Positions 20,538 through 47,108 of a stretch of 64,000 nt of DNA are shown here, piece after piece; positions within the stretch are counted from its first letter, which is position 1, and every line of letters begins with the position of its first letter. Made by a program: the position numbers and the translations under genes. The DNA is from Bacillota bacterium (GTDB lineage: Bacteria > Bacillota_I > Bacilli_A > RF39 > UBA660), in the NCBI GenBank assembly GCA_015059285.1, contig SVAS01000003.1:2679-66678 (forward strand), in the 5' to 3' direction. A model generated the notes under the pieces. It searched no databases. It was not told where the DNA came from and saw only the letters and a program-made list of their open reading frames with translations.

Positions 20538-20543
20538 TCTTTA

Positions 20544-20685: not shown

Positions 20686-20690
20686 ATCAC

Positions 20691-31894: not shown

Positions 31895-31918
31895 AATAAA
31901 AAGATGGTTAAACCATCT
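31895..31918 (-). terminator. Terminator after the aph-like gene (copy 2 of the identical 24-nt element)
   Basis: The same 24 nt as 30593-30616. It overlaps the aph stop codon and ends the long operon. Confidence 0.7.
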
Positions 31919-32703
31919 TATAAATATAATTGCATCATTAATAAATAATATTCTATTTTATGATAATCTGGAATTATTCCTAACTCTTCATAAAATTTTT
32001 CAACATATTCTTTACCAAAGTTTCTAACAATTGATTTTTGACAAATAGCAAGGTCAAACCATTTATCAGCAATACCACATTCACCTACATCAATAAATCC
32101 TGAAAAATTATCATTTAAACAAAATATATTAGGTAAACTAGTGTCTCCATGTGAAAAAACTAGTTCTTCTTCAAATCTATTATCATCTAAATATTTAATA
32201 ATTTCTTCTAATGAATTAAATTTGTCTTTTACAGCTTCTGGTAACTCGTTATAATTAATTAAACCTTCTTTAACATTAGTTTTTACTAAATTAAGTTTAT
32301 AATCTAAAGCTACATTCATAGGACAATTAGAAATATCTACACTAGTAATTTTTTTAAATGCTTGGGCTATTATTTTAATACCTAAATTTGGATTTTCTAA
32401 CATATTTTTAGAACAAACCATTTCACCTAAAATAGCTTCTGTAATTAAAAATTCAGTACTATTATCTACATCATAAAGAACTACTTTAGGAACTTCAAGT
32501 TTTCCTTCAAGCCATTTTAAAGCATTATATTCTTTTGTAAGTAAGCCTTCACTTGCCATTTTAATAAAAAATATTTCATTGTTTTTTTTTATTTCAAAAA
32601 CTTGAGAATCAGAACATCCAATTCCTATTTCTTTTAATTCAGCGTTTTTTAAAAAGTTCTCTACTTTACTACTTAATTTATAATTAAATTTCATGACTAT
32701 CAT
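31918..32703 (-). CDS. Aminoglycoside 3'-phosphotransferase family kinase (APH(3')-III-like)
   Basis: Collinear matches to my recollection of APH(3')-IIIa: WLEGKLEVPKV, SVDISNCP, EEELVFSHGD..NIF, SGFIDVGECGIADKWFDLA, LGIIPDYHKIEYY. Confidence 0.85.
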   Translation of the reverse strand: MIVMKFNYKLSSKVENFLKNAELKEIGIGCSDSQVFEIKKNNEIFFIKMASEGLLTKEYNALKWLEGKLEVPKVVLYDVDNSTEFLITEAILGEMVCSKNMLENPNLGIKIIAQAFKKITSVDISNCPMNVALDYKLNLVKTNVKEGLINYNELPEAVKDKFNSLEEIIKYLDDNRFEEELVFSHGDTSLPNIFCLNDNFSGFIDVGECGIADKWFDLAICQKSIVRNFGKEYVEKFYEELGIIPDYHKIEYYLLMMQLYL

Positions 32704-32704
32704 C

Positions 32705-34357
32705 CTATCTTTTTCTATCTGAAGGAGTATTAGTTAATCTTTTTTGTTTACTTTCTTTAAAGTAATCATAATTTCCTAAATATTGAACAATTTGTTCTTC
32801 TTCAATATTAACTACTCTTTGAGCAAGTTTATTAATAAAATATCTATCATGAGATATAAAGAATAATGTACCTTTATATTCATTTAAAGCTTCTTCTAAT
32901 ATTTCTTTTGTATCAATATCTATATGGTTAGTAGGTTCATCTAGTATTAATAGATTAGCCTTCTTTTGAATTAATTCAAATAATTTTAATCTTACTTTTT
33001 CTCCACCTGATAATGTACCAACTCTTTTAAATACATTTTCACCATAGAATAAGAATTTGGCTAGAGTAGCTCTAAGACGAGTTTCATCACCATCAAATAC
33101 TTTTCTAGCTGTATCTAATATAGTAGCTTTATCATCTTCAAATTTTATTTCTTGAGGAATATAACCGATACTTACATTACTTCCTACTTTAATTGTTCCT
33201 TGACTTATATTATCTCCATTTAATATAGCTTTAATTAAAGTTGACTTACCTGTTCCATTTTTACCCATCATACATACTTTTTCGCCATATTTAAGGCTCA
33301 TTGAAGCTCCATCAAATAAAACTCTATCGCCTAATATAATACCTAAATCATCGATAACTAAAACATCGTTCCCAGATCTTCCTTTTATTTCAAAATCAAG
33401 AGGAATTTGTTTTTTACTATCTGGTCTATCCAAAATTTCCATTTTTTCTAGTTTTCTTTCAATACAAGCAGCTCTTCTAAAAAATCTAGGGTTATCTCCA
33501 CGTTCTCCCCATTCTTTTAATTTTTTAACAGCAGCTTTCATTGCTTCAATTTGTTTTTGTTGTGTTTTATATTCTTCAAATTCCGCTAAAGCTCTTCTTT
33601 CACTTTCTTCTAAATAATAAGAATAGTTTCCATGATAAACTTCAGCTTTCCCTTTATCCATTAAAACTGTTTTAGTGGCTACTTTATCTAAAAAATATCT
33701 ATCATGTGAACTAATAATAATTGTTCCTTTATAATTTGATAAAAATTGTTCAAACCATTCTAATGTGTCTATATCTAAGTGATTAGTGGGTTCATCTAAA
33801 AGTAATATATCAGGATTACTAATAATAAGTGAAGCTAAATTAACAATTGTTTTTTCTCCACCTGATAATGTATTAAAATATCTATCTAACATATTATCAT
33901 TTATTTTAAATCCTCTACAAATTTTACTTACTTGTTCATCTATTTCATATCCGCCCATCATAGCAAATTTTTCTTGTAATTGTCCATAACTTTTAAGAAT
34001 AGAATCTAATTTAGATGGATCAATATTCGCCATCTTTTGTTCATATTCTCTTAATTTTTTTTCTATTTCAAAAATTTCTTTAAAACTACTAAGTAATATA
34101 TCTCTTACTGTACAATCATCAGTTACTTTAGGAGGCATTTGTGAAAGCATTCCAATAGTTGCGCCTTTACGAGTTGCAACCATTCCTTTACTTACTGTTT
34201 CTTTACCTATAATTACATTAAATAAAGTAGTCTTACCACAACCATTAGGACCTATTAAAGCTATTCTTTCCCCTGTATTTGCTTCCAAATCAAATTCATC
34301 TAAAACATTTTTAAAACCAAAACTTTTTACAGCTTTATTTACACTAATATCTATCAT
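32705..34357 (-). CDS. ABC-F family ATPase (no membrane domain), candidate ribosome-protection protein
   Basis: Two NBDs (GPNGCGKTT, GKNGTGKST; LSGGEK twice; LLLDEPTNHLD/LILDEPTNHID) joined by a charged helical linker. The ATG at 34357 is preceded by GAGGTGAG. Confidence 0.88.
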   Translation of the reverse strand: MIDISVNKAVKSFGFKNVLDEFDLEANTGERIALIGPNGCGKTTLFNVIIGKETVSKGMVATRKGATIGMLSQMPPKVTDDCTVRDILLSSFKEIFEIEKKLREYEQKMANIDPSKLDSILKSYGQLQEKFAMMGGYEIDEQVSKICRGFKINDNMLDRYFNTLSGGEKTIVNLASLIISNPDILLLDEPTNHLDIDTLEWFEQFLSNYKGTIIISSHDRYFLDKVATKTVLMDKGKAEVYHGNYSYYLEESERRALAEFEEYKTQQKQIEAMKAAVKKLKEWGERGDNPRFFRRAACIERKLEKMEILDRPDSKKQIPLDFEIKGRSGNDVLVIDDLGIILGDRVLFDGASMSLKYGEKVCMMGKNGTGKSTLIKAILNGDNISQGTIKVGSNVSIGYIPQEIKFEDDKATILDTARKVFDGDETRLRATLAKFLFYGENVFKRVGTLSGGEKVRLKLFELIQKKANLLILDEPTNHIDIDTKEILEEALNEYKGTLFFISHDRYFINKLAQRVVNIEEEQIVQYLGNYDYFKESKQKRLTNTPSDRKR

Positions 34358-34399
34358 TTTCTCACCTCGCATCAAATGAAATTCAAATTAAACAAGCAT

Positions 34400-34408
34400 A
34401 TTATAACA
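34400..34408 (-). promoter_or_regulatory. Possible extended -10 promoter (TGTTATAAT) upstream of the ABC-F/APH pair
   Basis: The minus-strand TGnTATAAT element lies in the 54-nt gap between the DegT-like gene and the ABC-F start. No good -35 is present. Confidence 0.3.
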
Positions 34409-34411
34409 CAA

Positions 34412-35452
34412 TTATTTATCTTTTTCTATGGTGTCAAATATTTTTTGTAAATTCTTTATTTGCTTATTTATTTTTACATTTCTAGTTCTAAGTAATATAA
34501 CCTGTTTATCACTGTTTTTTAAGTTATATATTTTACTATTTTTTAAACTTGGTAATCCATAATTAGGAACTTTATGTTTTTGTTGATATTCTAATTTATA
34601 TAATTTAGAAAGACTTATAAATTTATTATAACTATCGCGATCCAAAAGAATAGGGAAACGATGCCATACATTAGAATATATATTATCTTTAGTTGCAATC
34701 ATTTCGATATTTCTATTTTTTAATTCTATAAAGTACTTAAATGCATTTTTTCTTTGTTCTTTAACTACTTTATTACCTATTTTTATAAGTTTTTTCAAAT
34801 TAATTTTATGACAAAGTGGATATAAATAAGAATATATTAAATTATTTTGTAATCTACTTTCATTATCACAAAAATCAAAGTATTTATAATATTCTTTATT
34901 ATTAAAAAACATACCCCCACCAATTCCATAACTTAGTGGTTTAGTGTGTCCAAAAGAAGTTACGACTATATCAGCATCTTGGCATTTTAAAATATTCCAC
35001 GATTGTGCTATATCTTCAATTATTTTAATACCCATTTTTTTATACTTTTTTTTATCTAAGTTATGTAGTATACCGTACTGATGAACTAACAAAATGCAGT
35101 CTATTTTTTGCTTTTTTATTACTTCAGAAATTTCTTCATCTGTTAATATTAAGTTATCTTTAGGTACAACAATAATAGGATTATAATTTAACTTTTTAAT
35201 TGTACTCATAATAGAATAACATACTTCTGAAGAAACCAATATATTGGCTTTTTCTTCTAAATTTAAACATTTAAAAGCAAGTTCAATTGCAAGTGTTCCA
35301 GAATATGTTATTACTCCATACTTCTTATTAAAATATTTAGCTAAAGCATTACCTAATTTTTGATTACTTTTTCTCACTTTTTCCACTCCTTCATTTTTTA
35401 CAATGAAATACATGTTTATGTTCAAAACCTGGTGCTCCATACCCATCATCAA
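34412..35452 (-). CDS. DegT/DnrJ/EryC1/StrS-like PLP enzyme (short form)
   Basis: YSGTLAIELAF, IIEDIAQSW and VVTSFGHTKPL (candidate PLP lysine) in family order. The N-terminus is shortened and the start is uncertain (35452 or the Met at 35413). It overlaps the upstream methyltransferase gene. Confidence 0.65.
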   Translation of the reverse strand: MMMGMEHQVLNINMYFIVKNEGVEKVRKSNQKLGNALAKYFNKKYGVITYSGTLAIELAFKCLNLEEKANILVSSEVCYSIMSTIKKLNYNPIIVVPKDNLILTDEEISEVIKKQKIDCILLVHQYGILHNLDKKKYKKMGIKIIEDIAQSWNILKCQDADIVVTSFGHTKPLSYGIGGGMFFNNKEYYKYFDFCDNESRLQNNLIYSYLYPLCHKINLKKLIKIGNKVVKEQRKNAFKYFIELKNRNIEMIATKDNIYSNVWHRFPILLDRDSYNKFISLSKLYKLEYQQKHKVPNYGLPSLKNSKIYNLKNSDKQVILLRTRNVKINKQIKNLQKIFDTIEKDK

Positions 35453-36110
35453 TTTTTAATATTGATAATAAATTATTTAAAGTATTTAAAACAAAATACT
35501 CATCATAATATAAATATTTTTCTTTTTCTATCACTATCTTTTGACTATTTACTAAGTGATATTTAATTATAAATTCTATATAATTACTTTTTCTTATAGA
35601 AGTATAATAAACTTCTACTTGTTCTTTTAATTCACTATGTTCTTTCGTAAATAGTAATTGTTCTTTGATTTCTGGTTTTTTATTAAAACTTTCGGATAAA
35701 TCAAATAAAACAATTGTTTTTTCGTTACATATCTTATAGATTTGTTTAATCATTTCTATGAATTTATTTTTATCACCAGAAAACTGTAAAGTACTATAAG
35801 GAACTATAATTAAATCAAAATCTTTTTTTATAGGATTATAATTTATAAAATCACAACATACTACATTAATATTACTAGTTTTCTTTTTTAAAAGATTTAA
35901 TCTTTCTAAATCCATATCTAACGCTGTAACTTGAGCATACTTGCTTAAAGGAATAGCAACTCTTCCGGTACCTGCTCCTATAATAAGTACATTCTTTGCC
36001 TTATAAAATTTCATTTGTTTTATATAATAATTAATGTCATCATTTTGACCTCTTAAAGTACATTCATTATAAAAATCATACATAAGAGCTAATAATTCAT
36101 TATCATTCAT
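35391..36110 (-). CDS. Class I SAM-dependent methyltransferase
   Basis: Motif I VLIIGAGTGRVAIPL and post-I LDMD. The ATG at 36110 preceded by AGGGGT is preferred over the start at 36137. Confidence 0.8.
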   Translation of the reverse strand: MNDNELLALMYDFYNECTLRGQNDDINYYIKQMKFYKAKNVLIIGAGTGRVAIPLSKYAQVTALDMDLERLNLLKKKTSNINVVCCDFINYNPIKKDFDLIIVPYSTLQFSGDKNKFIEMIKQIYKICNEKTIVLFDLSESFNKKPEIKEQLLFTKEHSELKEQVEVYYTSIRKSNYIEFIIKYHLVNSQKIVIEKEKYLYYDEYFVLNTLNNLLSILKIDDGYGAPGFEHKHVFHCKK

Positions 36111-36117
36111 AATACCC

Positions 36118-37080
36118 CTACTTTTCTCCATAATCATATAAATTTAAATAAGGTTTATTTTCTTTATTCCAATGCATATTATAAAATCTACTTTGATAAG
36201 TTCCGAAAGAAATATTAAAGTCTTCTATACTTTCAAATACAGAACCTTCAAAATCTACATATTTAACAATATCATTTTCAATAAAAAACTTAAATATTTG
36301 ATGATATAAAAACGCTATAGCAACATCATCTTGTTTTTCTTCATAATATGAATAAAGTATATAGGCTGTTTTTTTGTCCCATGCCATATGAACTCCGCCT
36401 ACGACTTTACCATTTTCTAAAGCTACAAAACACATTCCACGATTATGTTTAATAGTTTTTCTAATATAATCTTTAACATCTAATGCAGTAGATTCATAAT
36501 TATATTTTGCTTCCCATTTCATAGCTTTATTAGTATCAAAATATTTAATATCTTTATCAACTACAAACTCATAATTTCTCTTTATTGCTCTTTTTATATC
36601 TTTTTTTCTATCGCTACCATAATTTTTAAAAATTTCTTCTATTCCTTTAGATAAATCTAATTTATAAGTATATCTAACTTCTGGAGTAAAATTATTTCTA
36701 ATAAATGGCATAATATCAATAATTTCATTATCTATAGAAAAATCCGCACTCTCAAAATTTTCTTTAATAAATTTACACAATACTTTTTCTACATTTCTAA
36801 TATATCTTATTTTATTACGATTTTCTTTAGGCAAATTAAATATAACAGGTCCACCATAAGGAATATACATAGTACTTTGAAAAATAATTTTAGAATTTCC
36901 AGAATTAAAATAAGGCATAAATCCTTGTAATTCATTTTTATCATTTAATATTTTTAAAATTTTATTACTATTTTTAAACTTCAAAAACCAAGAATAAGCA
37001 AAACAAGTTCCATTAAAACTATTATCTATAAGCTCATCTATATTTTTAAGTTCTTCTATATTTCCAAATTCTATATGCAT
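36118..37080 (-). CDS. FemAB/Acetyltransf_6-like GNAT-fold acyl or aminoacyl transferase
   Basis: 320 aa. The pattern ...RKKDIKRAIKRNYEFV..., CFVALENGKVVGGVHMAWD and VDFEGS...FNISFG resembles FemX/CelD-like two-lobe GNAT proteins. Confidence 0.55.
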   Translation of the reverse strand: MHIEFGNIEELKNIDELIDNSFNGTCFAYSWFLKFKNSNKILKILNDKNELQGFMPYFNSGNSKIIFQSTMYIPYGGPVIFNLPKENRNKIRYIRNVEKVLCKFIKENFESADFSIDNEIIDIMPFIRNNFTPEVRYTYKLDLSKGIEEIFKNYGSDRKKDIKRAIKRNYEFVVDKDIKYFDTNKAMKWEAKYNYESTALDVKDYIRKTIKHNRGMCFVALENGKVVGGVHMAWDKKTAYILYSYYEEKQDDVAIAFLYHQIFKFFIENDIVKYVDFEGSVFESIEDFNISFGTYQSRFYNMHWNKENKPYLNLYDYGEK

Positions 37081-37083
37081 AAA

Positions 37084-37920
37084 TTACTCCTTTGAAATTA
37101 TTATATGACATCTTTTTATTTCATTATTTTTTAAATCATCATATGTCTTATTTCTTCTTCCCCAAAAATCTAAACTCAAAATACTAGAAACACTATATAA
37201 ATATTCAATATGATTAAATAAGCAAAAAAATCCAGCACATTCTTTTCTACCTTCATACGAAGAACCCCATTTTACATTAAACCAAGTGTCTTTATTTTTA
37301 AACATTAAAGTATACCCTAAAGGAATACCTTTTTTATAAATAACTTGTAAGCTTGTTTCTAAAGGATTATTTAATAACATTGGAAGGTACTGTAAATCTT
37401 CCCTATCCAAACTTTTCATATCTGAATTTTCTTCCCTTTTCCAAGAGTTATAATCAATTACTAATACATCTTTCCATAATCTTAAAACATCTTCATTTTT
37501 AGAATTTTTTATTTGAAATTTTTCTTTATTTTTTATATATTTCTTATAATTCTTTTTAATTTGATTAGAACTTAACGTATCAATATAAACATTTAAAGGT
37601 GTATTTAAATCTAATAAAGGAGAATCCCAACAATCAAGCTCTTCAAATTTAAAGTTATTTTTTCTTGCCCAAATTTTTAATCTTTCAATACTTTCTTGAT
37701 TATCAAAGTAACTAAATCTTACTTTTTTATTATTTTCTATTTCCTTTTTAATTTGTTCTAAGACTTTTTCACTTATATTAAAGTTAAAGAAGTTTTGGCA
37801 CTTTAAAATACTCTTATCTTCATAAAAATATAAATTATCATATACTTTTATTTTATCTATATCATATCTTATATATAATGCATTTATCCAATCAGAACTC
37901 ATCGTAAAATTAAAGTTCAT
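37084..37920 (-). CDS. Acetyltransf_6 (CelD/BioF2-like) GNAT-fold transferase
   Basis: 278 aa. The C-terminal YKKGIPLGYTLMF...SLDFWGRRNKTYDDLK resembles the PF13480-type D-x-G-x-G...YK signature. Confidence 0.5.
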   Translation of the reverse strand: MNFNFTMSSDWINALYIRYDIDKIKVYDNLYFYEDKSILKCQNFFNFNISEKVLEQIKKEIENNKKVRFSYFDNQESIERLKIWARKNNFKFEELDCWDSPLLDLNTPLNVYIDTLSSNQIKKNYKKYIKNKEKFQIKNSKNEDVLRLWKDVLVIDYNSWKREENSDMKSLDREDLQYLPMLLNNPLETSLQVIYKKGIPLGYTLMFKNKDTWFNVKWGSSYEGRKECAGFFCLFNHIEYLYSVSSILSLDFWGRRNKTYDDLKNNEIKRCHIIISKE

Positions 37921-39127
37921 CTTTGTACTCCTTTAAACATTTTATAATATATTTAATATGTTTATTTTTTAAAGAAGCAGATAAGTTGTAAAACGCTACT
38001 CTTTTAAATAAAGAATATGAATAAGATAAATCACTTTCTCGATAATGACTTACATTATAAGGAAATCCACTTGTATGCCATGATTGTTTTTTTATAAATG
38101 TATCAAAATTAGAAATTAAATTACTACAATATAAATTAAAACCAATTCCCTTATTATTCATTTTTTTAATAAAATCTGAACACTCTTTTTCAGATTTAAA
38201 CTCTATAGCAAGGCTTGTAAATATCGGTTTAGAACCTATTACAAATGGTCTAATATTATAAAATTTGGTATCAATATTATTTACAATTTTATAATAAGTA
38301 TCATTTTGTTTCCTAATAATTTTTTCAATTTTATTTAATTGTTCTAAAGCTATAGCACTTTGAATTTCAGTTATTTTAAAGTTTTCTCCAAAAAAAGTTT
38401 TTCCATTTTCCCAAGTTGGATAATTACAACCATTTCGGTATCCTCCATTATCATGGTACATTTTAGCTTTTTCATATACTTGTTTATTGTTGGTTGCTAA
38501 AAATCCACCTTCACCGCAAGTAATTGTTTTCCCAGCTTGAAGACTAAATGCTCCAATGTTTCCCAAAGTCCCTACCTTTTTATTATTGATACTTGCTCCA
38601 AAAGCTTGAGCTGTATCTTCAATAACTACTAAGTTATGTTTTTTAGCAATTTTATTTATTTCTATCATATTACAAGGTTGTCCTTGCATATGAATAGCCA
38701 TAATAGCTTTTGTTTTATCAGTAATCTTTTCTTCTATTTTTTTATAATCTATATTCATAGTATTATCTATATCTACAAATACAGGAATAGCACCACAAGA
38801 TAGCACTTCGCTTGCTGATGCTATAAATGTAAAAGGTGACATTATAACTTCATCCCCACATCCTATATCACTCGCAATACAAGCAAGTTTTAAAGCAGCA
38901 CCACCACTTGTACAAGCAAGTACATATTTAACGCCTAAATATTCGGCCAAATTCTTTTCAAACTTGTCTGTTTTATATTGTAAATTAGGACCATGATATC
39001 TAAATAAACTTTTACTTTTTAAAACTTTTTTTACTGCTTTAATCTCTTCTTTACCGATATAATGAGTACCAATAAAAGGATCATTTGGAATCTTCACAAA
39101 AATCCCCCCTTTACTTATTTTCTTCAT
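37910..39127 (-). CDS. DegT/DnrJ/EryC1/StrS family sugar aminotransferase
   Basis: 405 aa. CTSGGAALKLA, DEVIMSPFTFIASA, VIEDTAQAFGA and FSLQAGKTITCGEGG (PLP lysine). Confidence 0.85.
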   Translation of the reverse strand: MKKISKGGIFVKIPNDPFIGTHYIGKEEIKAVKKVLKSKSLFRYHGPNLQYKTDKFEKNLAEYLGVKYVLACTSGGAALKLACIASDIGCGDEVIMSPFTFIASASEVLSCGAIPVFVDIDNTMNIDYKKIEEKITDKTKAIMAIHMQGQPCNMIEINKIAKKHNLVVIEDTAQAFGASINNKKVGTLGNIGAFSLQAGKTITCGEGGFLATNNKQVYEKAKMYHDNGGYRNGCNYPTWENGKTFFGENFKITEIQSAIALEQLNKIEKIIRKQNDTYYKIVNNIDTKFYNIRPFVIGSKPIFTSLAIEFKSEKECSDFIKKMNNKGIGFNLYCSNLISNFDTFIKKQSWHTSGFPYNVSHYRESDLSYSYSLFKRVAFYNLSASLKNKHIKYIIKCLKEYKDEL

Positions 39128-40232
39128 ATATTATTTTAGCTATTTTAAAAGCTGCATCTTTTTCAAATTCATTAAAATAAGTGTTTCTTTTTTCAAAATA
39201 TTTTTCTTGATTAGAATTTAAATATTTACTAATTATTTTATTAACACTTTCTTTATAATCATAATCTAAATATTGTTTTATATTTTCTAAAACCATATCT
39301 ACTCCAGATTTTTCATCTAAATACATAGGTATTTCTTTATAAAAATTAAAATTATCCCAATTTAATATATCAAAACCAAAATCCATTTTTCTATAGTAGT
39401 TTAATTGTAACATCTGACTATAATTTATAGCAGGCAAATACATAATATTTTTATTTTCATTAATTGTTTCTATAAAATTACCAAGTCCTGATGACATAAT
39501 ACAGTGACTGGATTCTTGCATACATTTTAAATATTCTTCATTTGATAAAGTTTTAATAAATACTTTATCATTTTCTTTATCTAATTTAATATTATTAATT
39601 ACTTTGCTACCACCACAAATAATAATTTTATCAAATTTATTTATTTCGTTTGTAGAAAGAATTTCATTAATAATTTTATTATAAAATTTATTTATTATAG
39701 TTTGATCAAATAGAAATGATGAAGCCCCACCTAAATTAATAATTAATTGATTTTTAGTTTTGCCTTTATAAGAGTTTTTTAAATTTCTAACAGGTCCTAA
39801 AAATATAGGATTATCAATAACATGACCAACTCTATCAAAGTTTTCTTTACATGAGAATGTTTCTGATATAAAGAACTTCTTAACTTTACCTAACTTTTCT
39901 GGTATTTCATCCCACATCCATACTAAGTTATCAACATAATAAACATTCTTTATATAATCTAAACTGAAGATTGCTCCATTAATATTTTCACTTGAAAAAT
40001 AGATATCATATTTTAAAAATACATCTTTATGTTTTTCTAAATCAACCATGTCAAAAGTATCGCACTCATAAAATTCATTAAAATATCCACTCATTTTAGC
40101 TTGTTCTAAAGAAATTCCTGAACCGATAAAATCAACAATTACATCAGGATATTTAATTAATTCTTTTATAACATTAAGACAAGTCGCAATAGGACCATAT
40201 CCAAAACTTTCAGCTGATACTAATATTTTCAT
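39111..40232 (-). CDS. GT-B fold glycosyltransferase (GT1/GT28-like)
   Basis: N-terminus MKILVSAESFGYGPIATCL. The C-terminal HCIMSSGLGNFIETINENKNIMYLPAINYSQ fits the H-x4-G-x-G-x3-E...P...Q nucleotide-sugar motif of GT1/MurG-like enzymes. Confidence 0.55.
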   Translation of the reverse strand: MKILVSAESFGYGPIATCLNVIKELIKYPDVIVDFIGSGISLEQAKMSGYFNEFYECDTFDMVDLEKHKDVFLKYDIYFSSENINGAIFSLDYIKNVYYVDNLVWMWDEIPEKLGKVKKFFISETFSCKENFDRVGHVIDNPIFLGPVRNLKNSYKGKTKNQLIINLGGASSFLFDQTIINKFYNKIINEILSTNEINKFDKIIICGGSKVINNIKLDKENDKVFIKTLSNEEYLKCMQESSHCIMSSGLGNFIETINENKNIMYLPAINYSQMLQLNYYRKMDFGFDILNWDNFNFYKEIPMYLDEKSGVDMVLENIKQYLDYDYKESVNKIISKYLNSNQEKYFEKRNTYFNEFEKDAAFKIAKIIYEENK

Positions 40233-40234
40233 TT

Positions 40235-41254
40235 TTATAACTCCTTTATTTTAAAATAACATTTATTAAATTGACAATTAGCTTCATCACACTTTTTCTT
40301 GCAATCAAGCTCACTATTTAATAATTTTGTTTGTAATTCACTTCTTTTTGAACCATTCCAAATTTCTGTAAATGTTTCATTATGTAATTCACCAATCTTA
40401 TATATAGTTCTATCTCTATGGATACTACAATCACAAGGATATACAAATCCTGTTGGAGCATCTATAAAAACGCAATATGATGGATAAACACATTTTAAAT
40501 CTAAATTAATACTTCTATCTCCATTTGAATTAATTTCTTTTTTAAAAAAATTAATATCACTACATAAAAATTCTATACCTAATGAAGCAGATAAACTTAA
40601 ATAATAATCTAAATTATTATTATAATTATTCATTTGTTCTTCTGTAAAAAATAAATCATCACAATCTTTAATAATTATTGGATTAATATAGTCAAAATCA
40701 AATCTTTCTTTTAACCTAATAAAACTTTCAAAATCATCTATATTTTTTTTATTTAATACGTGGTTAATTGCTACTTTAGTATTTGGCATATATTTTTTTA
40801 TTAAATTAATATTACGAGTAACAATATCCCATAAACCAACTACTCTTCTCAGTTCATCATGTATTTCTGCATTAAAACTATCAATTGAAAAAAACACTGC
40901 ATTTATATCATAAGTAGCTAATTTTTTTATTTTTTCTTCATCTAAATTTAAACCATTTGAAATAACATTTATATGAATACCTTTTTTAGTAGCATATTCA
41001 ATATATTTAAATATATCATCATTAATAAAAGGCTCTCCACCACCTGTAAAATGAATATATTTAGTCCCAAGTAAGCTTAATTCATCTATTAATTTAAATA
41101 CATCTATAGAACAATTTTTTTCTTTATTCTCCCTTACATCACAAAAAACACAATTAGCATTACAAAGATTACTTAAAGATAAATAAGCATAATATGGTTT
41201 GTCATAAAACTTTAGTAAGTCTTGTTTTTTTTCTTTTAGTAATTTCAAATACAT
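40235..41254 (-). CDS. Radical SAM enzyme with C-terminal SPASM/twitch-like Cys-rich domain
   Basis: CNANCVFC (CX3CX2C), the GGGEP SAM-binding motif, and C-terminal cysteines (CVYPSYC...CDC...CKKKCDEANCQFNKC). Confidence 0.88.
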   Translation of the reverse strand: MYLKLLKEKKQDLLKFYDKPYYAYLSLSNLCNANCVFCDVRENKEKNCSIDVFKLIDELSLLGTKYIHFTGGGEPFINDDIFKYIEYATKKGIHINVISNGLNLDEEKIKKLATYDINAVFFSIDSFNAEIHDELRRVVGLWDIVTRNINLIKKYMPNTKVAINHVLNKKNIDDFESFIRLKERFDFDYINPIIIKDCDDLFFTEEQMNNYNNNLDYYLSLSASLGIEFLCSDINFFKKEINSNGDRSINLDLKCVYPSYCVFIDAPTGFVYPCDCSIHRDRTIYKIGELHNETFTEIWNGSKRSELQTKLLNSELDCKKKCDEANCQFNKCYFKIKEL

Positions 41255-41256
41255 AG

Positions 41257-41724
41257 TTACACCTCATTTAAACCATCCAATATTCCACTTATTGTTTGTA
41301 ACATTGAATCATTTAAAAAATCATTACATTTATAATATTTAGTATTAGTTAAAGTATCTAATCCCATAACAACTGGAGAATACATAAAATTATCTTCTAC
41401 TAAAATGTGTAAATCTTTTTTTAAAGCGGATGCCCAACCTAACTCAATATGAACTCCACCACTTATTCCTTTAGATAAATGATTACCAGGTATTACTATA
41501 ATAGCATCACTAGATTTAATTCCTTCATAATCACTTAAAGTACACTCTTGAGGTCCCTTATGATCTACTCCCCAATTTTCTCTTTTTATAGCTAAATAAT
41601 AATCAAAACCCTTATTAGTAATCAAATTAATTAAGTTTTCAAAAAACGGCTGATATTCTTTTTTTACAACATAATTTTCTTCTTCACATAATCCAGTAAA
41701 TGGACAAGATATAAATACTTTCAT
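41257..41724 (-). CDS. Nucleoside 2-deoxyribosyltransferase-like (candidate nucleotide N-glycosidase)
   Basis: 155 aa. MKVFISCPF ..., SDAIIVIP and GGVHIELGWASALKKDLHIL follow the PF05014-type pattern (D...G...E.G.A). Confidence 0.55.
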   Translation of the reverse strand: MKVFISCPFTGLCEEENYVVKKEYQPFFENLINLITNKGFDYYLAIKRENWGVDHKGPQECTLSDYEGIKSSDAIIVIPGNHLSKGISGGVHIELGWASALKKDLHILVEDNFMYSPVVMGLDTLTNTKYYKCNDFLNDSMLQTISGILDGLNEV

Positions 41725-41731
41725 TTTTTTC

Positions 41732-42610
41732 CTACCTTCTAAAATATTTTTTCTTTGTTAATAATTTATCTGTTAATGATGTTTCACTTATGCATAAATT
41801 ATTATTAATTCCGGTTGCAATAAATCTTCCATCAGTATTTACTAAACGGTGAAAATCACTTCCAACAGAAGTTAATAAATCATGTTTTTTAGCAATATCA
41901 TATAACCAAATAGTATCTTTTTTTAAGCAATCTGATTGATATATTTCTATTCCATCTATTCCCATAGAAATAAGTTTGTGAGTAATAACTTCAACTTCTG
42001 CTTTATCTAATTTATAAGCCATAGGATGAGCAAAAACAACATATCCTCCAGCAGAATGTATAGCATCAATTACATGTCTAACAGAAACTTCATAATCTTC
42101 GCCATAACTAAATCTATTAGCTTTATAATAAACTCTTAACTTATCTATTGATTCTTTTGAATAATTACCCTCTTCAAAACATTTAATAATCTCTCTATCA
42201 AACCAACAATAACGGCTAAAATTTAAATAGCCAATTTCCTCTTCTGGTAATACTTTTACCATTTCTTTTACCTTTTTTACTACGCTCATATGAGCATCTA
42301 TTCTTTTATCTTTCATTTCATTTAATAACTCTTCTAATTTATGGTTATTTTCATTAAAACCATAACCTAGAATATGTAGTTTTATTTTCTTATTGTTAAT
42401 TACTATATAAGAAGAAAACTCAACTCCATTTATGCCAACTAAACCCTTTTTAATACTTTTTTTAAATTCATTCAAACCTTCAATTGTATCATGATCAGCA
42501 ATTGATAAAATTTTAGTACTGTTATCATTTGCTAGTTCAATAATTTCTGTCGGAGTAAAATATCCATCTGAATTATTTGAATGAACATGCAAATCAATGT
42601 ATTTACTCAT
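41732..42610 (-). CDS. PHP-domain phosphoesterase
   Basis: YIDLHVHSNNSDGYFTPTEII...SIADHDTIEG, then FAHP and GSDFH metal ligands. The ATG at 42610 is preceded by GAGGTGA. Confidence 0.85.
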   Translation of the reverse strand: MSKYIDLHVHSNNSDGYFTPTEIIELANDNSTKILSIADHDTIEGLNEFKKSIKKGLVGINGVEFSSYIVINNKKIKLHILGYGFNENNHKLEELLNEMKDKRIDAHMSVVKKVKEMVKVLPEEEIGYLNFSRYCWFDREIIKCFEEGNYSKESIDKLRVYYKANRFSYGEDYEVSVRHVIDAIHSAGGYVVFAHPMAYKLDKAEVEVITHKLISMGIDGIEIYQSDCLKKDTIWLYDIAKKHDLLTSVGSDFHRLVNTDGRFIATGINNNLCISETSLTDKLLTKKKYFRR

Positions 42611-42630
42611 AAGTATCACCTCTAATTATA

Positions 42631-42660
42631 ATTATATAGACTTATCTGTAATTTGACCAA
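42631..42660 (-). promoter_or_regulatory. Candidate promoter of the 12-gene operon
   Basis: Minus-strand TTGGTC (42655-42660), an 18-nt spacer, and TATAAT (42631-42636), 20 nt upstream of the PHP start codon. Confidence 0.4.
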
Positions 42661-42683
42661 TACCTAAATCTTATATGTTATAA

Positions 42684-42697
42684 GTTATAATTATAAC
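42684..42697. promoter_or_regulatory. Perfect 14-nt palindrome GTTATAATTATAAC, possible LysR-type operator
   Basis: It lies just upstream of the candidate -35 and downstream of the lysR-family gene. It is AT-rich, so a chance occurrence is possible. Confidence 0.3.
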
Positions 42698-42729
42698 AAA
42701 AAAAGGAAACTTTAATTATTTCCTTTTTT
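42698..42729 (-). terminator. Hairpin around the LysR stop codon
   Basis: 9-bp stem aaaaggaaa/tttcctttt with flanking A and T runs. Confidence 0.5.
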
Positions 42730-43614
42730 AAATATATTTACAAAATCTTTGACAATATCATGATTAAATTTTTTATTGTATGCTACACTAACAGGGATAA
42801 ATACTTTATCAATATCAACATTAACTTCAAATAATTTACCATTTTCAATATCTTCTAAAACAAAATTTTTAATCATCCAGCCAATTCCAATTCCTTTACT
42901 GATTATGCCTTTTGAAACAGAAGATGAATTAGCTTCAATTAAAGGATTTAATACTATTTGTTTTTTCTTAAAATACATATCTATCATTTTTCTATTGGCG
43001 GTATGTGGTCCAGGTAAAATTAATGGATAATTTACTAATTCAGAAGCCTTTACTATCTCTTTTTCTGCAACACTCTTAAATTGCTCACTACATACAAAAC
43101 AACTTTCCAAATTAAGAATATCATATTTAGATAAAGGAGAACCATCTAAATCAGGCATATCAGTATCAATAACAATATCCAGTTCTCTTTTAGTTAGCAT
43201 CTTTAACATTTCTTCAGATTTCTTATTAACAATATTAATTCTTATATTGGGGTATTTTTCATTAAAAATTTTCAAATAATTAACAAAATAAAATGTCCCT
43301 ATATGAGTAGGCACCCCAATATTAATAATATCAAAAGAAGCCTCTTTTGCTTTATCTAACATCTCTTGATTTGCGAGTGCAAGTTCACAAAGTTTTTCAG
43401 AATAATAATAAACTACTTCACCAGCCGGTGTTAACTCAATCCCTTTAGAAGTCCTTTTAAAAAGTTCTAAATTTAATTGTTCTTCTAATTTTTTTATTGC
43501 TTGAGTTACTGCAGGTTGTGAAATATATAACTCATGTGAAGCTTTAGTAAAACTTTTGTATTTTCCTACTATATAAAATGTTTTATATAAATTTAAATCA
43601 ACATTCAAATTCAT
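42712..43614 (-). CDS. LysR family transcriptional regulator
   Basis: N-terminal wHTH (FTKASHELYISQPAVTQAIKKLEEQL) plus a periplasmic-binding-like effector domain. 300 aa. Confidence 0.9.
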   Translation of the reverse strand: MNLNVDLNLYKTFYIVGKYKSFTKASHELYISQPAVTQAIKKLEEQLNLELFKRTSKGIELTPAGEVVYYYSEKLCELALANQEMLDKAKEASFDIINIGVPTHIGTFYFVNYLKIFNEKYPNIRINIVNKKSEEMLKMLTKRELDIVIDTDMPDLDGSPLSKYDILNLESCFVCSEQFKSVAEKEIVKASELVNYPLILPGPHTANRKMIDMYFKKKQIVLNPLIEANSSSVSKGIISKGIGIGWMIKNFVLEDIENGKLFEVNVDIDKVFIPVSVAYNKKFNHDIVKDFVNIFKKGNN

Positions 43615-43756: not shown

Positions 43757-44097
43757 TGGTGGAGCTGAGGAGAATCGAACTCCTGTCCAAAAATATATTC
43801 ATATAAATTTCTACAAGTTTAGTCAGTTAATAAAATTCCTAGATAAACTGATAACTAACAATCTATTTTCTAGTAAGCCTATAAAATTCATTATTACTTC
43901 TAGGCGCCGTAATAATATATCCCATTAAATCGAGCCTCTTAAAAACTCCATGGGAGAAAGTTTATAAGAAGCAGCCTCCATTATATTAAGCGAAAGCTAA
44001 TTGATTTCTGTTTCCAGTTATTTTTTGTTTGCACTTAACGCGTGCCTTCGACTTGCCATCTATACTTCAATATTTCTGTCGAAACCTAAACAGCCCC
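43757..44097 (-). ncRNA. ssrA: tmRNA (ssrA)
   Basis: Minus-strand 5' end GGGGCTGTTTAGGTTTCGAC and 3' end GGAGTTCGATTCTCCTCAGCTCCACCA (T-arm, acceptor, CCA). The internal tag frame is AAAAATAACT|GGA AAC AGA AAT CAA TTA GCT TTC GCT TAA. Confidence 0.93.
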
Positions 44098-44191
44098 ATA
44101 AATGTATAACCATTATAGCATACTTACAAAAAAAATCAAATATACATAGCACACTAATAAACTCTTTTCATAAAATATTAAAGGTGATTAT

Positions 44192-46634: not shown

Positions 46635-46669
46635 AAAAAAAGGAAATAATTAATTTTATTTCCTTTTTT
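46635..46669. terminator. Bidirectional terminator between the MazG-like gene and smpB
   Basis: 10-bp stem aaaggaaata/tatttccttt flanked by A and T runs. Confidence 0.65.
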
Positions 46670-47108
46670 AATATTTTTTTAATTGTCTTTCTATATCTCT
46701 ATCAATATCTTTTTTCTTAATTGCTTCTCTTTTATCATAATTTTTTTTCCCTTTAGCAACACCTATTAATATTTTAGCAATATTCTTTTTAAAATATAAT
46801 TTTATAGGAACTAAAGTATAACCTAACATTTGAACTTTTTCATTTAATTTTAAAATTTCTTTTTTATGAAGCAATAACTTTCTTGTTCTGGTTTCATTGT
46901 GATTAAAGATATTACCTTGCTCATAATGACTAATATGCATATTAAGTAAGAATATTTCACCATTTTTTATAATAGCATAACTATCTTTTAAATTAGCAGA
47001 ACCATTTTTTATAGATTTGATTTCCGTACCAGTTAACACAATTCCTGCTTCTATCGTATCTAATATTTCATAATCATATTTTGCTTTTCTATTATTTATT
47101 TCTATCAT
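46668..47108 (-). CDS. smpB: SsrA-binding protein SmpB
   Basis: [29 protein letters not shown]-terminus and a basic C-terminal tail. 146 aa. Confidence 0.95.

Follow-up and report, generated by a model that had tools for sequence, protein, structure and literature searches.

Gene content and boundaries of the block

Within the window (the whole analysed stretch of 64,000 nucleotides of Bacillota bacterium contig SVAS01000003.1), a LysR gene and 11 densely packed genes occupy positions 31918–43614, all on the minus strand (Table 1). The sequence-only reading had counted twelve genes from the PHP phosphoesterase to the aph kinase; the list of open reading frames (ORFs) holds 11 over that span, and 12 only if LysR is included. 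Its ORFs and strands were as we found them, and its junction distances agree with the values recomputed from ORF coordinates, within the choice of start codons (+7, +2, +2, −17, −11, +3, −20 or +7, −62 or +13, +36 or +54, and +1 nt).

Table 1 Features of the block and its borders, in window coordinates.
Feature	Position	Strand	Basis or detail
Intrinsic terminator, operon end	31901..31919	−	8 bp, −8.2 kcal/mol, z = −3.4, then T-run
APH(3')-family O-phosphotransferase (APH)	31918..32703	−	PF01636 + NF033068
ABC-F ATPase without membrane domain	32705..34375	−	NF000355; alternative start 34357
Second, shorter DegT-family PLP enzyme	34412..35377	−	PF01041 2.5e-21; start 35452 or 35377
Class I SAM-dependent methyltransferase	35391..36137	−	PF13649 + PF08241; alternative start 36110
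Tandem-GNAT protein B	36118..37080	−	Weak PF13480; AlphaFold2 pLDDT 85
Tandem-GNAT protein A	37084..37920	−	Aminoacyl-tRNA-dependent transferase fold, AlphaFold2 pLDDT 93
DegT/DnrJ/EryC1-family PLP sugar aminotransferase (BlsH/MilD role)	37910..39127	−	PF01041 2.6e-86
CGA synthase (BlsD/MilC)-related glycosyltransferase	39111..40232	−	TIGR04467 matches in family
BlsE/MilG-like radical SAM, C-terminal SPASM/twitch-type Cys-rich domain	40235..41254	−	PF04055 + PF13186
BlsM/MilB/BcmB-type CMP N-glycosidase	41257..41724	−	PDB matches + MilB residue mapping
PHP-family metal phosphoesterase, 3',5'-nucleoside-bisphosphate phosphatase / RNase AM type	41732..42610	−	PF02811
RBS AGAGGTG	42623-42617	−	3' of −10
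Operon promoter region	42631..42684	−	Read from sequence
−10 TATAAT	42636-42631	−	Read from sequence
−35 TTGGTC	42660-42655	−	Read from sequence
LysR-type T-N11-A dyad CTTATAACATATAAG	42684-42670	−	Read from sequence
LysR gene's own hairpin	42729-42699	−	−10 kcal/mol
LysR-family transcriptional regulator	42712..43614	−	PF00126 + PF03466
tmRNA terminator hairpin	about 43716-43684	−	−11.8 kcal/mol, z = −4.1
tmRNA (ssrA) gene	43757..44097	−	Rfam RF00023, 180.9 bits, match full-length

The region upstream of LysR is occupied by a tmRNA gene (Rfam match), which is the upstream limit of the block and lies outside the pathway. At the other end, the strong terminator described earlier is real but modest, and was the sole terminator-like site in a scan of 31.5–44.3 kb. 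ORFs and a Pfam search revealed neither an exporter nor a UDP-glucose dehydrogenase encoded in the block.

LysR, the cluster-situated regulator, is co-oriented with the operon and lies 92 nt upstream of it with its own hairpin. It stands beside the block, at a median identity of 60%, in 23 non-redundant related loci. A promoter pattern scan picked up TGGTCA-17-TATAAT. Sigma-70 patterns in the region were not above chance (102 found versus 105.6 expected from shuffled sequence), so the promoter call, a candidate in the earlier reading, rests on conservation: the TTAT-N7-ATAA dyad, ATTGGT and TATAAT are kept in 9 orthologous loci, across which the LysR box, −35, −10 and RBS are conserved.

Complete copies of the block were found at about 22 loci, representing about 25 species, and their flanks are unrelated; homologous loci in the comparison matrix have no flanking gene in common with the window. 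Carriers of the syntenic block, in near-identical copies, are about 25 species-level MAGs, uncultured, from animal and human gut. Because synteny extends across species, chance alone does not account for the arrangement; the block is a real, discrete and conserved unit, and the co-occurrence in other genomes on which the sequence-only reading had partly depended is thus seen. The homologous-locus flanks that were read in detail contained no Wzx/Wzy or teichoic-acid genes, which agrees with the earlier argument against a surface-polysaccharide locus.

Core enzymes and their relatives in cytosine nucleoside pathways

Four genes of the block correspond to the cytosyl-pyranoside core known from the biosynthesis of blasticidin S, mildiomycin and arginomycin: those for a CMP N-glycosidase, a glycosyltransferase resembling cytosylglucuronate (CGA) synthase, a radical SAM enzyme similar to BlsE/MilG, and a DegT aminotransferase. 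This shared core has been defined by BlsD/MilC and BlsE/MilG/ArgF (PMC3715490), and the mildiomycin pathway comprises MilB, MilC, MilD (DegT), MilG (radical SAM) and MilH, a putative tRNA-dependent aminoacyltransferase (PMC11784345). The Pfam families named earlier were reproduced, except that PF05014 fell under its cut-off and the glycosyltransferase and protein A had no Pfam match.

The family and active site of the N-glycosidase are well defined. Its only significant PDB matches were BcmB (4JEN, 1.6e-24), MilB (4JEM, 6e-17) and BlsM (5VTO, 2e-16), with a weak PF05014 match (25.6 bits). Six MilB substrate-contact or catalytic residues map onto it (F22 to F9, E62 to E49, D78 to D65, S97 to S88, G99 to G90 and the catalytic E103 to E94) and are invariant in 12 orthologues, in which the position of MilB Arg23 is Thr, Ser or Ala. 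The latter indicates CMP, not hydroxymethyl-CMP, as substrate: the Arg/Lys that selects hmCMP is replaced, as in the CMP-specific BlsM. All seven mapped positions fit the expectation for a CMP-specific enzyme.

For the glycosyltransferase, the sole NCBIfam match was TIGR04467 (CGA_synthase), making CGA synthase the only curated relative of the family. The model was matched by all 16 close homologues (best 3.4e-11) and, among 112 distant representatives, by 107 (best 2.4e-39). The window protein itself scored 19.5 bits against a cut-off of 300, so by the curated test it is not a member of the CGA synthase family.

Among solved structures, BlsE (7VOB; 3.6e-15 with the single sequence, 1.5e-19 with a profile) came closest to the radical SAM enzyme, six orders of magnitude ahead of the second best, SkfB (2e-13), and the enzyme's motifs C31xxxC35xxC38 and GGEP (72–75) are in register with those of BlsE (PMC3715490). 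Significant alignment to BlsE was limited to the N-terminal half, and viperin/pVip HMMs (71–77 bits) and generic SPASM maturase HMMs fitted the radical SAM core as well as BlsE did. At 62.9 bits against a cut-off of 400 for the BlsE family model, the curated test does not place the enzyme in that family. The first DegT protein (395 aa from an alternative start at 39097) matched PDB sugar aminotransferases down to 6e-58.

Natural fusions among homologues elsewhere tie the four core enzymes into one pathway: CMP-glycosidase–glycosyltransferase in six proteins, glycosyltransferase–DegT in two (P0328 and P0358) and glycosyltransferase–radical SAM in one. All four core enzymes thereby point to one pathway. 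The sequence-only reading named no characterised cluster of this composition in low-GC spore-formers; the operon is not described in the literature searched, but its core is the one already known from blasticidin S, mildiomycin and arginomycin (PMC11784345, PMC3715490).

Fem-fold, tailoring and putative protection genes

Proteins A and B, previously described as two Fem/CelD-like GNATs, have no detectable sequence relation to each other, and their structural models show the fold of aminoacyl-tRNA-dependent Fem-type transferases. Protein A had no sequence match in Pfam, NCBIfam or PDB; its top Foldseek matches were the MprF C-terminal domain (4.5e-9) and FemX (3e-8), with Sba18/Sbb17 also found (8e-8, TM 0.62). 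Protein B was closest to the aminoacyl-tRNA-dependent peptide synthase Sbb17 (9WQX, 2.6e-12, TM 0.67/0.74), and Sba18 and Weissella FemX (3.6e-12) were also among its top matches. Tandem-GNAT enzymes that use CoA thioesters ranked lower in both lists, and the models suggest that A and B depend on aminoacyl-tRNA. In the BD-12 pathway, the tRNA-dependent transferase Orf11 acylates an amino sugar (PMC12945691); its substrate, streptothrisamine, is the ligand in the Sba18 and Sbb17 PDB entries. Other pathways of this type are thought to use ATP-grasp or NRPS-type ligases, whereas this block has two Fem-fold transferases.

The methyltransferase, probably a tailoring enzyme, gave generic NCBIfam matches (Erm, 35.7 bits, cut-off 212; BioC, 34.6 bits). 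It is missing from some otherwise complete loci; of the related loci compared, L014, L030 and the Clostridia variant lacked a match to it. The second DegT protein matched PDB sugar aminotransferases at 4e-10 and keeps the Schiff-base lysine: the lysine of SFGxxK does not vary across 21 orthologues and lines up with that of the first DegT protein. Candidate roles are a second amination, epimerisation or elimination. A divergent copy is present in the Clostridia variant.

ABC-F is the block's most conserved gene (median 78%). It passes the NCBIfam ribosomal-protection-like model NF000355 (439.8 bits, cut-off 380) and falls under the cut-offs for EttA, Uup, Msr, Vga and other named subfamilies; PDB scores were about equal for EttA, YbiT, VmlR, PoxtA and Uup, so known resistance ABC-Fs are no closer to it than the housekeeping proteins EttA and YbiT. 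APH, found in 19 non-redundant related loci, passes NF033068 for APH(3') (219.9 bits, cut-off 205) and carries the motifs HGDxxxxN and IDVGxxGxADKWxDL. Both genes are retained in every Bacilli-type locus that extends that far. Self-resistance through O-phosphorylation, by Ard2, operates for the nucleoside antibiotic A201A (PMC12710036); comparable work on hygromycin A and capuramycin (CapP) is cited in that review's reference list.

PHP was found in 25 loci. The Clostridia variant is one of them, and there its gene adjoins that for APH. Its NCBIfam matches, RNase RNM (3e-37) and nucleoside bisphosphate phosphatase (3e-36), were both under cut-off, and its PDB matches included 9ETK (1.6e-21), Cv1693 (2YB1, 4e-17) and the 5'-3' exoribonuclease 7UG9 (5e-16). 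As a pAp-phosphatase-like enzyme, it may reverse phosphorylation by APH. Inspection of the translation by eye revealed no obvious N-terminal signal peptide, so phosphate removal after export is not a simple fit.

Proposed pathway and self-protection

We propose that the BlsM-type N-glycosidase would free cytosine from CMP, as its sequence suggests, and that the CGA-synthase-like glycosyltransferase would couple it to a UDP-hexuronate or UDP-hexose. The radical SAM enzyme would then convert the sugar of the cytosyl-hexose to a keto intermediate, by radical dehydration (to 3'-deoxy-4'-keto) or decarboxylation, and the first DegT enzyme would aminate this 4'-keto nucleoside to a 4'-amino sugar nucleoside. 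From their modelled folds, protein A is proposed to add one amino acid from aminoacyl-tRNA to the amino-nucleoside and the unrelated protein B a second, before tailoring by the methyltransferase and the second PLP enzyme. The product would probably block the ribosomal peptidyl-transferase centre.

The earlier suggestion of built-in resistance stands in that ABC-F and APH pass curated models; the roles of APH, ABC-F and PHP are ones we infer. ABC-F may shield the producer's ribosomes by clearing the product from them. The APH(3')-type kinase may serve self-protection by phosphorylating a sugar hydroxyl, which would keep the intracellular compound or its intermediates inactive as a phosphate ester, and PHP would strip the phosphate from a nucleoside intermediate or kinase product at maturation.

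The N-glycosidase, glycosyltransferase, radical SAM and Fem-fold evidence supports the idea, already raised from the sequence, of a nucleoside or amino-sugar small-molecule cluster whose product is probably ribosome-targeting. The likely reading, in our view, is a LysR-controlled operon that directs synthesis of a cytosine hexopyranosyl (peptidyl) nucleoside in the blasticidin S/mildiomycin/gougerotin class and also carries genes protecting the producer. It would resemble the ribosome-blocking blasticidin/mildiomycin-type pathways of Streptomyces, here in gut bacteria.

Organization of the block and its spread among genomes

The LysR gene and eleven further genes are packed on one strand, their junctions ranging from +7 to −20 nt; two of these vary with the start codon chosen. 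The domain list of the sequence-only reading was reproduced by Pfam search; its twelve-gene operon from PHP to APH came down to eleven genes, twelve being reached only when LysR is counted. A terminator hairpin with a T-run (8 bp, −8.2 kcal/mol, z = −3.4) overlaps the APH stop codon and was the only terminator-like site in the 12.8 kb scanned. At the other end, the LysR–PHP spacer holds, in order, the LysR gene's own hairpin (−10 kcal/mol), a TTAT-N7-ATAA dyad, an ATTGGT −35 element, a TATAAT −10 element and a ribosome-binding site, an architecture that was kept across nine orthologous loci. Scanning for sigma-70 patterns was uninformative in DNA this AT-rich, as the count equalled that expected from shuffled sequence, and it is therefore the conservation of the spacer that provides the promoter evidence.

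A tmRNA gene, overlooked in the sequence-only reading, falls within the 580 nt directly upstream of LysR. We looked for a direct repeat of the tmRNA 3′ end bounding the block and found none, and the GC content of the block did not differ from its surroundings (22–32% across the window, very AT-rich); integration at ssrA is thus unsupported in the window's genome. A mechanically called ORF lies almost wholly inside the tmRNA gene and is likely spurious, while smpB and an RNase R gene are found nearby.

Positions of features in the window, with Pfam matches for the genes of the block
Feature	Position	Strand	Remarks
T-box region	20300–20766	minus
SpoIVA gene	22089–23564	minus	spore-former lineage
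MurD-like ligase and MurL-type epimerase genes	27814–30511	minus	overlapping
GT4 monoglucosyl-diacylglycerol-synthase-like gene	30621–31796
LysR-to-APH block	31918–43614	minus
APH gene	31918–32703	minus	APH
ABC-F gene	32705–34375	minus	two ABC domains, ABC_tran_Xtn linker
DegT2 gene		minus	DegT, weaker than DegT1
Methyltransferase gene		minus	class I methyltransferase
GNAT protein B gene		minus	Acetyltransf_6, weak
GNAT protein A gene		minus	no Pfam match
DegT1 gene		minus	DegT
Glycosyltransferase (GT) gene		minus	no Pfam match; 'GT-B' in the sequence-only reading
Radical SAM gene		minus	Radical_SAM and SPASM
N-glycosidase gene		minus	Nuc_deoxyrib_tr, weak match
PHP gene		minus	PHP domain
TTAT-N7-ATAA dyad	42684–42670		T-N11-A LysR box
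tmRNA gene	43757–44097	minus	full-length, own terminator
Mechanical ORF	44001–44195	plus
smpB	46668–47108
RNase R gene	48294–50399
Conjugative-element genes	53179–63824	minus
Type IV secretion coupling protein gene	53179–55374	minus
Large unannotated ORF	56173–59157	minus	conjugative-element region
VirB4/TraG-like ATPase gene	59195–60979	minus
Large unannotated ORF	61839–63824	minus	conjugative-element region

The set of SpoIVA, T-box leader, EngA and EngB, and a MurD-like gene with MurL found in the window fits a spore-forming low-GC Firmicute. The T-box leader (127 bits) and two tRNA genes lie upstream of a pair of genes for 485- and 487-residue proteins and of two class II aminoacyl-tRNA synthetase genes. 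The MurD-like ligase gene overlaps that of a MurL-type UDP-MurNAc-L-Ala-L-Glu epimerase (NF041275, 4e-78, below cut-off), an alternative D-Glu route to peptidoglycan, here in a Firmicute; the GT4 gene stands beside them, and all three are outside the cluster.

Homologues of the GT formed 116 clusters, none with a protein name and nearly all from metagenomes, and a scan of one genome per species yielded 30 related loci. Most of these belong to uncultured gut MAGs (goat, rabbit, rumen and human gut) labelled 'Bacilli', 'Tenericutes', 'Erysipelotrichaceae' or 'Mycoplasmataceae'; three are from Clostridia MAGs and two from cultured Paenibacillus species. The entire LysR-to-APH order was kept in about 22 loci (tblastn matrix), with median identities across loci running from 49% (GNAT protein A and DegT2) up to 78% (ABC-F), and both ABC-F and APH were retained in all Bacilli-type loci long enough to include them. 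The flanks seen in the window (SDR gene, tmRNA, GT4 gene and MurL) recurred only in same-species contigs (L001–L003), and those of the locus L004 (SMC and D-Ala-D-Ala carboxypeptidase) were unrelated to them. Co-occurrence of the block genes across genomes, a check put forward in the sequence-only reading, was borne out: the same block is present in roughly 25 species, with unrelated flanks outside the window's own. Contigs identical to that of the window were found in metagenome assemblies (ENA ERZ28653927, ENA ERZ28653809 and JGI 3300018495), and tblastn with the GT gave no match in the plasmid collection.

Two kinds of locus depart from this arrangement. Those of Clostridia retain LysR, the four core genes (N-glycosidase, GT, radical SAM enzyme and DegT1), both GNAT proteins, a divergent DegT2, PHP, an inverted APH and ABC-F, lack the methyltransferase and have gained a small GNAT. 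Those of Paenibacillus have only the four core genes in common with the block, together with other tailoring and kinase/phosphatase genes. These cultured carriers of the four-gene core are P. periandrae (L034, 2672–20439) and P. faecalis (L006/L035, 6878–19007). Their tailoring genes encode a class III aminotransferase, an aldo-keto reductase, an arginase-family enzyme, a second DegT and a small GNAT, beside a chloramphenicol-phosphotransferase-like P-loop kinase, a PPDK-like kinase, an Exo_endo_phos phosphatase and a DUF1152 protein, and the P. faecalis locus also has two ABC exporters. These species may make a compound resembling gougerotin or the bagougeramines, and they are amenable to experiment.

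Smaller variations were seen among the remaining loci. In L004, an extra gene for a 295-residue protein with a weak Radical_SAM match (E = 0.004) lies between the methyltransferase and DegT2 genes (14845–15732, plus strand), and genes of this type occur in some Bacilli-type loci. The contig of a near-identical strain (L003, 1–6100 and 9013–10004, ENA ERZ28653809) is altered compared with the window: the radical SAM gene is interrupted, leaving two ORFs (139 and 186 residues), probably by a frameshift or as a pseudogene, and upstream of LysR the SDR gene and its neighbours are replaced by phage-tail-like Gp10_C genes and an M23/LysM peptidase gene, which may represent a prophage near the tmRNA gene.

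A core related to cytosylglucuronate pathways

The N-glycosidase (155 residues) matched BcmB (PDB 4JEN, 1.6e-24, residues 2–153), MilB (4JEM, 6e-17) and BlsM (5VTO, 2e-16), with no other PDB match at E ≤ 1. Functional residues of MilB taken from PMC4081090 were mapped through this alignment: Phe22, Glu62, Asp78, Ser97, Gly99 and the catalytic Glu103 correspond to F9, E49, D65, S88, G90 and E94 of the window protein, all six of which are invariant in 12 orthologues. The F-L-(G/A)-(G/A)-P-F-X-X-L motif reads F-I-S-C-P-F-T-G-L, keeping the P-F core with relaxed G/A positions. Similarity over the whole domain, along with the active-site residues, places the protein in the MilB/BlsM/BcmB family. 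The residue that follows P-F is Arg or Lys in hydroxymethylase-linked hmCMP-specific enzymes and Met in the CMP-specific BlsM (PMC4081090). Thr occupies this position in the window protein, and Thr, Ser or Ala do so in all 12 orthologues, which places the enzyme in the CMP-specific BlsM-like subgroup and not in the hmCMP-specific one. As there is neither an Arg/Lys at this position nor a hydroxymethylase (MilA/ThyA-type) in the block, unmodified cytosine should be released from CMP. BcmB, the closest solved relative, likewise comes from a low-GC anaerobe (the bacimethrin pathway of Clostridium botulinum), but its preferred substrate is hydroxymethyl-CMP, Lys stands in place of Arg23, and a ThyA-like hydroxymethylase is linked to it (PMC4081090); the remaining genes of the bacimethrin cluster are unrelated to those of the block.

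The sole curated family matched by the GT was TIGR04467, hydroxymethylcytosylglucuronate/cytosylglucuronate (CGA) synthase, at 19.5 bits against a cut-off of 300. All 16 close homologues sampled matched this family (best 3.4e-11). An exhaustive profile search extended the superfamily to 1034 representatives at 50% identity, and 107 of 112 distant members matched TIGR04467 (best 2.4e-39) and almost no other family. None of the 128 family members scanned reached the TIGR04467 cut-off, and we place the GT as a sister family of CGA synthase, claiming no demonstrated membership. By analogy it would use free cytosine and UDP-glucuronic acid, a role supported by the CMP glycosidase that is adjacent here and fused to it elsewhere. 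Fusions found in other genomes comprised six of CMP glycosidase with GT, two of GT with DegT and one of GT with radical SAM enzyme (P0408, P0420, P0429, P0433, P0434, P0467, P0328, P0358 and P0451, the last being the GT–radical SAM fusion). Because they are fused elsewhere, the four core activities have independent evidence of acting in one pathway. So large a GT superfamily, with such fusions, suggests that many unrecognized cytosine-nucleoside pathways remain.

For the radical SAM enzyme, the best solved relative was BlsE, 'cytosylglucuronate decarboxylase' (3.6e-15 by single sequence and 1.5e-19 by profile against PDB), ahead of SkfB (2e-13), BtrN (7e-9) and viperins (about 1e-8) in the profile search. 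C31, C35 and C38 and the G72-G73-E74-P75 stretch are invariant, placing CxxxCxΦC and GGEP as in BlsE (positions 31–38 and 73–76; PMC3715490). The curated BlsE/MilG/ArgF model, TIGR04466, gave 62.9 bits over residues 22–149 only and missed its cut-off of 400; in the HMM libraries, the radical SAM core scored as well or better against generic SPASM maturases and prokaryotic viperin (71–77 bits against 62.9 for the BlsE model). Significant alignment to BlsE was confined to the N-terminal half, and the C-terminal C..Y.C.C..HR pattern is common to both proteins in an alignment that is not significant. The radical SAM, GT and CMP hydrolase genes were adjacent in all 30 related species-level loci, Paenibacillus included.

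DegT1 is a strong match to DegT-family sugar aminotransferases, the family to which MilD belongs (PMC11784345). The characterized pathways follow the same logic: the base, once freed by MilB or BlsM, is joined to UDP-glucuronic acid by MilC or BlsD, and through MilG or BlsE with a DegT enzyme an unsaturated or deoxygenated pyranose gains an amino group in place of the 4′-OH (PMC11784345, PMC3715490).

Proposed peptide assembly and protection, and alternative readings

Sequence-profile searches of PDB gave nothing meaningful for GNAT proteins A and B; PF13480 matched B at 17.5 bits, below its cut-off of 22, and A matched neither PF02388 nor PF13480. They were resolved only by structure prediction followed by Foldseek. 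The best matches of the AlphaFold2 models (pLDDT 93 for A and 85 for B) were Sbb17/Sba18, Weissella FemX and the C-terminal domain of MprF (probability 1.00, TM 0.58–0.74), with CoA-dependent tandem GNATs clearly lower-scoring against both. Sbb17 and Sba18 are described in PDB as aminoacyl-tRNA-dependent peptide synthases bound to streptothrisamine. Both models thus have the predicted double-GNAT fold of FemABX/Orf11(Sba18)-type transferases, with a putative tRNA donor. Enzymes of this kind are known from natural-product biosynthesis: in the BD-12/glycylthricin pathway, the tRNA-dependent Orf11, whose substrate is also that bound by Sba18 and Sbb17, aminoacylates the antibiotic's amino sugar from Gly-tRNA (PMC12945691). 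The acceptor here would instead be an amino-nucleoside, and the tandem-GNAT likeness to Orf11/Sba18/Sbb17 and FemX comes without detected sequence similarity. Profile–profile comparison found no relation between A and B, which fits two different acceptor or donor specificities; the pair would add two amino acids, either as a dipeptide or at two sites.

DegT2 is short and keeps its Schiff-base lysine in all 21 orthologues. The methyltransferase is of a generic family and is missing from some otherwise complete loci; we prefer a tailoring to a resistance role for it. An Erm-like rRNA methyltransferase was considered and is held less likely, the match being 35.7 bits against a cut-off of 212, restricted to the SAM-binding region, in a gene that not all loci have.

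The ABC-F protein (PF00005 twice and PF12848 once, without a transmembrane domain) passes the NCBI ribosomal-protection-like model NF000355 (439.8 bits, cut-off 380). It reached no named subfamily cut-off (248–333 bits against 680–1450 for Msr, Vga, Lsa, Sal, OptrA/PoxtA and TlrC/CarA/OleB) and fails the EttA and Uup models, and among solved structures EttA, YbiT, VmlR, PoxtA and Uup score much alike. Its high conservation and its presence in every Bacilli-type locus long enough speak for an ABC-F dedicated to the cluster. The kinase scores 219.9 bits with the APH(3′) model NF033068, above its cut-off of 205, reaches no named APH(3′) subtype cut-off, and has its HxDxxxxN and DxG motifs as HGDTSLPN and IDVGECG in translation. 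The PHP protein groups with the pAp phosphatase Cv1693, which strips the 3′-phosphate from nucleotides, and with RNase AM. All three locus types have a kinase and a phosphatase beside the core, though not of the same families: the block and the Clostridia loci have APH with PHP, whereas in Paenibacillus the kinase is PPDK-like or of the P-loop type and the phosphatase is an EEP (Exo_endo_phos) protein.

The APH–PHP pair may serve a phosphate pro-drug cycle, in which the kinase would phosphorylate the product and the PHP phosphatase would reverse this. Its weak points are that the PHP protein has no obvious signal peptide (translation read by eye) and that the block has no exporter. Ard1 and Hyg19, of the A201A and hygromycin A systems, are ABC-F partners of the O-phosphotransferases Ard2 and Hyg21. 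The A201A, hygromycin A and capuramycin systems share with our proposal a kinase acting on a sugar hydroxyl of a nucleoside antibiotic, here beside a ribosome-protection-type ABC-F; they differ in scaffold and kinase lineage, as the block kinase passes an aminoglycoside APH(3′) model and a PHP protein is added. In the A201A producer, Ard2 inactivates the nucleoside antibiotic (PMC12710036, whose reference list cites a hygromycin A phosphotransferase and CapP of capuramycin).

Taken together, we tentatively propose a widespread, horizontally shuffled operon of uncultured, low-GC gut Bacilli and Clostridia (in ruminants, rabbits and humans) that would make a new ribosome-targeting cytosine peptidyl nucleoside, with a peptide part made wholly by two unrelated Fem-fold ligases dependent on aminoacyl-tRNA, a pro-drug cycle and a dedicated ABC-F; we hold this whole to be possible rather than probable. 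A variant with the same core pathway would make APH, PHP and DegT2 biosynthetic instead of protective: a sugar hydroxyl would be phosphorylated, the PLP enzyme would eliminate (deoxygenating or desaturating the sugar), with the phosphatase clearing away side products, on the GenP/GenB3 logic of gentamicin 3′,4′-dideoxygenation. Such a route would suit the recurrence of a kinase–phosphatase pair in different families, the apparent lack of a signal peptide and the kept lysine of DegT2. GenB3 and GenB4, however, have a class III aminotransferase fold and not that of DegT, the BlsE-like enzyme already supplies a deoxygenation route, and the APH gene sits at the operon's distal end beside ABC-F, as is typical of resistance genes. 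Blasticidin-type cores do have a 2′,3′-unsaturated sugar (PMC11784345), but APH-type kinases of antibiotic clusters are described as resistance enzymes (PMC12710036). We consider biosynthetic phosphorylation unlikely and prefer the pro-drug cycle to phosphorylation-driven deoxygenation. That the block modifies the cell envelope seems highly improbable. DegT1 has PseC, WecE and LegC-type families as its top NCBIfam matches (all below cut-off), FemX and MprF are envelope enzymes, and the block adjoins MurD-like, MurL and glycolipid GT4 genes, so that an amino-sugar or nonulosonic-acid-type unit with Fem-like aminoacylation on peptidoglycan or teichoic-acid precursors might be imagined, ABC-F and APH being passengers. 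Those neighbours are nevertheless specific to the window's species, the other roughly 25 species having unrelated flanks; the block lacks a dehydratase, nucleotidyltransferase, flippase, polymerase and priming transferase; the CMP glycosidase and the BlsE-like enzyme would have no role; and the supposed passengers are retained in every Bacilli-type locus that extends to them.

Viperins act on CTP, and the lack of an exporter, the presence of a kinase and a nucleotide phosphatase, and matches of the radical SAM core to PADLOC pVip models (3e-22) and NCBIfam prokaryotic viperin (71 bits) could speak for a viperin-like system whose product, a modified cytosine nucleoside or nucleotide, works inside the cell as a signal or as a chain terminator against phage and is not a secreted antibiotic. 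The pVip match, though, covers only the generic core of a protein that has a SPASM/twitch domain, which viperins are not known to have, and in pairwise searches BlsE scored 3.6e-15 with no viperin reaching E = 0.1. The nine other cluster proteins scanned (ABC-F was left out) gave no meaningful PADLOC match, the minor ones being methyltransferase to mad2 (47 bits) and GNAT protein B to Csm5 (18 bits). The GT, two aminoacyl transferases and ribosome-protection ABC-F would go unexplained, and a base cut off its ribose cannot yield a polymerase substrate of the ddhCTP kind; we rate this reading very unlikely. An aminoglycoside- or aminocyclitol-type product, with a BtrN-like dehydrogenase, a BtrS-like aminotransferase, a GT and APH(3′) self-resistance, would account for the APH(3′) model passed by the kinase, for the BtrN match (7e-9) and for 2-deoxy-scyllo-inosose aminotransferases among the PDB matches of DegT1 (8e-50). 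We rejected it as barely credible: the block has no 2-deoxy-scyllo-inosose synthase, inositol-phosphate synthase or other cyclitol-forming enzyme, BlsE is ahead of BtrN by 10 orders of magnitude, the GT is CGA-synthase-like, and the CMP N-glycosidase, GT-fused in other genomes, has an intact active site.

Relation to known peptidyl nucleosides and significance

The cytosine peptidyl nucleoside that we favour would belong to a kind already known, the cytosyl-pyranoside peptidyl nucleoside pathway with self-resistance. Gougerotin (Streptomyces) and the bagougeramines (Bacillus circulans) are 4′-amino-4′-deoxy cytosyl-glucuronamide dipeptidyl nucleosides, their core being cytosine and a 4-amino-hexuronate with a dipeptide that has an N-methylated residue. 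Such an N-methylated dipeptide matches the two aminoacyl transferases and one methyltransferase of the block, and the bagougeramines show that Firmicutes are able to make this class. A radical SAM enzyme of BlsE type is not known to be required for gougerotin.

The core is likened to those of blasticidin S (bls), mildiomycin (mil) and arginomycin (arg), cytosyl-pyranoside peptidyl nucleosides of Streptomyces/Streptoverticillium, with which it shares a CMP/hmCMP N-glycosidase (BlsM/MilB), a CGA synthase-type GT (BlsD/MilC), a radical SAM enzyme (BlsE/MilG/ArgF) and a DegT aminotransferase (MilD) (PMC3715490, PMC11784345). Transfer RNA-dependent aminoacylation, carried out by BlsK in blasticidin biosynthesis (PMC12710036) and proposed for MilH in that of mildiomycin (PMC11784345), would be a further likeness, predicted for the block from the fold of its GNAT proteins. 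Products of the class target the ribosome (PMC12710036). The differences are considerable. The block proteins fall far below the curated bls/mil cut-offs, and the host is a gut Firmicute of 25% GC and not an actinomycete. Arginine 2,3-aminomutase, ATP-grasp ligase, CMP hydroxymethylase and MFS exporter are all absent from the block, where the whole peptide part is apparently built by two Fem-fold transferases. Protection would come from ABC-F, an APH(3′)-type kinase and PHP, where the bls, mil and arg systems use leucylation or acetylation, and regulation differs in being by LysR.

Our literature search found no cluster of such a type described for Firmicutes or gut bacteria. Four features appear to be new: the phylum and habitat, a peptide assembly wholly of Fem type, the combination of ABC-F with APH(3′) and PHP, and control by LysR. 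The class of blasticidin S, mildiomycin, gougerotin and arginomycin has, to our knowledge, almost only actinomycete producers; about 25 uncultured anaerobic gut Firmicute species, human-gut MAGs included, would extend it to a new phylum and habitat, and the pathway would, if our proposal is true, be the first of its kind outside Actinobacteria. The cluster also offers two new putative tRNA-dependent amide-forming enzymes, known here from modelled folds, with no sequence relatives of known function.

As APH and ABC-F pass NCBI AMR-type models, resistome surveys will count them as aminoglycoside and ribosomal-protection ABC-F resistance. Their context makes self-protection in the producer of a nucleoside antibiotic more likely than acquired resistance, which affects how gut resistomes are interpreted and how the origins of resistance genes are traced. 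If the proposal holds, resistance genes of the APH(3′)-like and ABC-F kinds in the gut would have a natural reservoir, and possibly an origin, in this operon, and so conserved and complete-looking a gut version would point to translation-inhibitor warfare among commensals.
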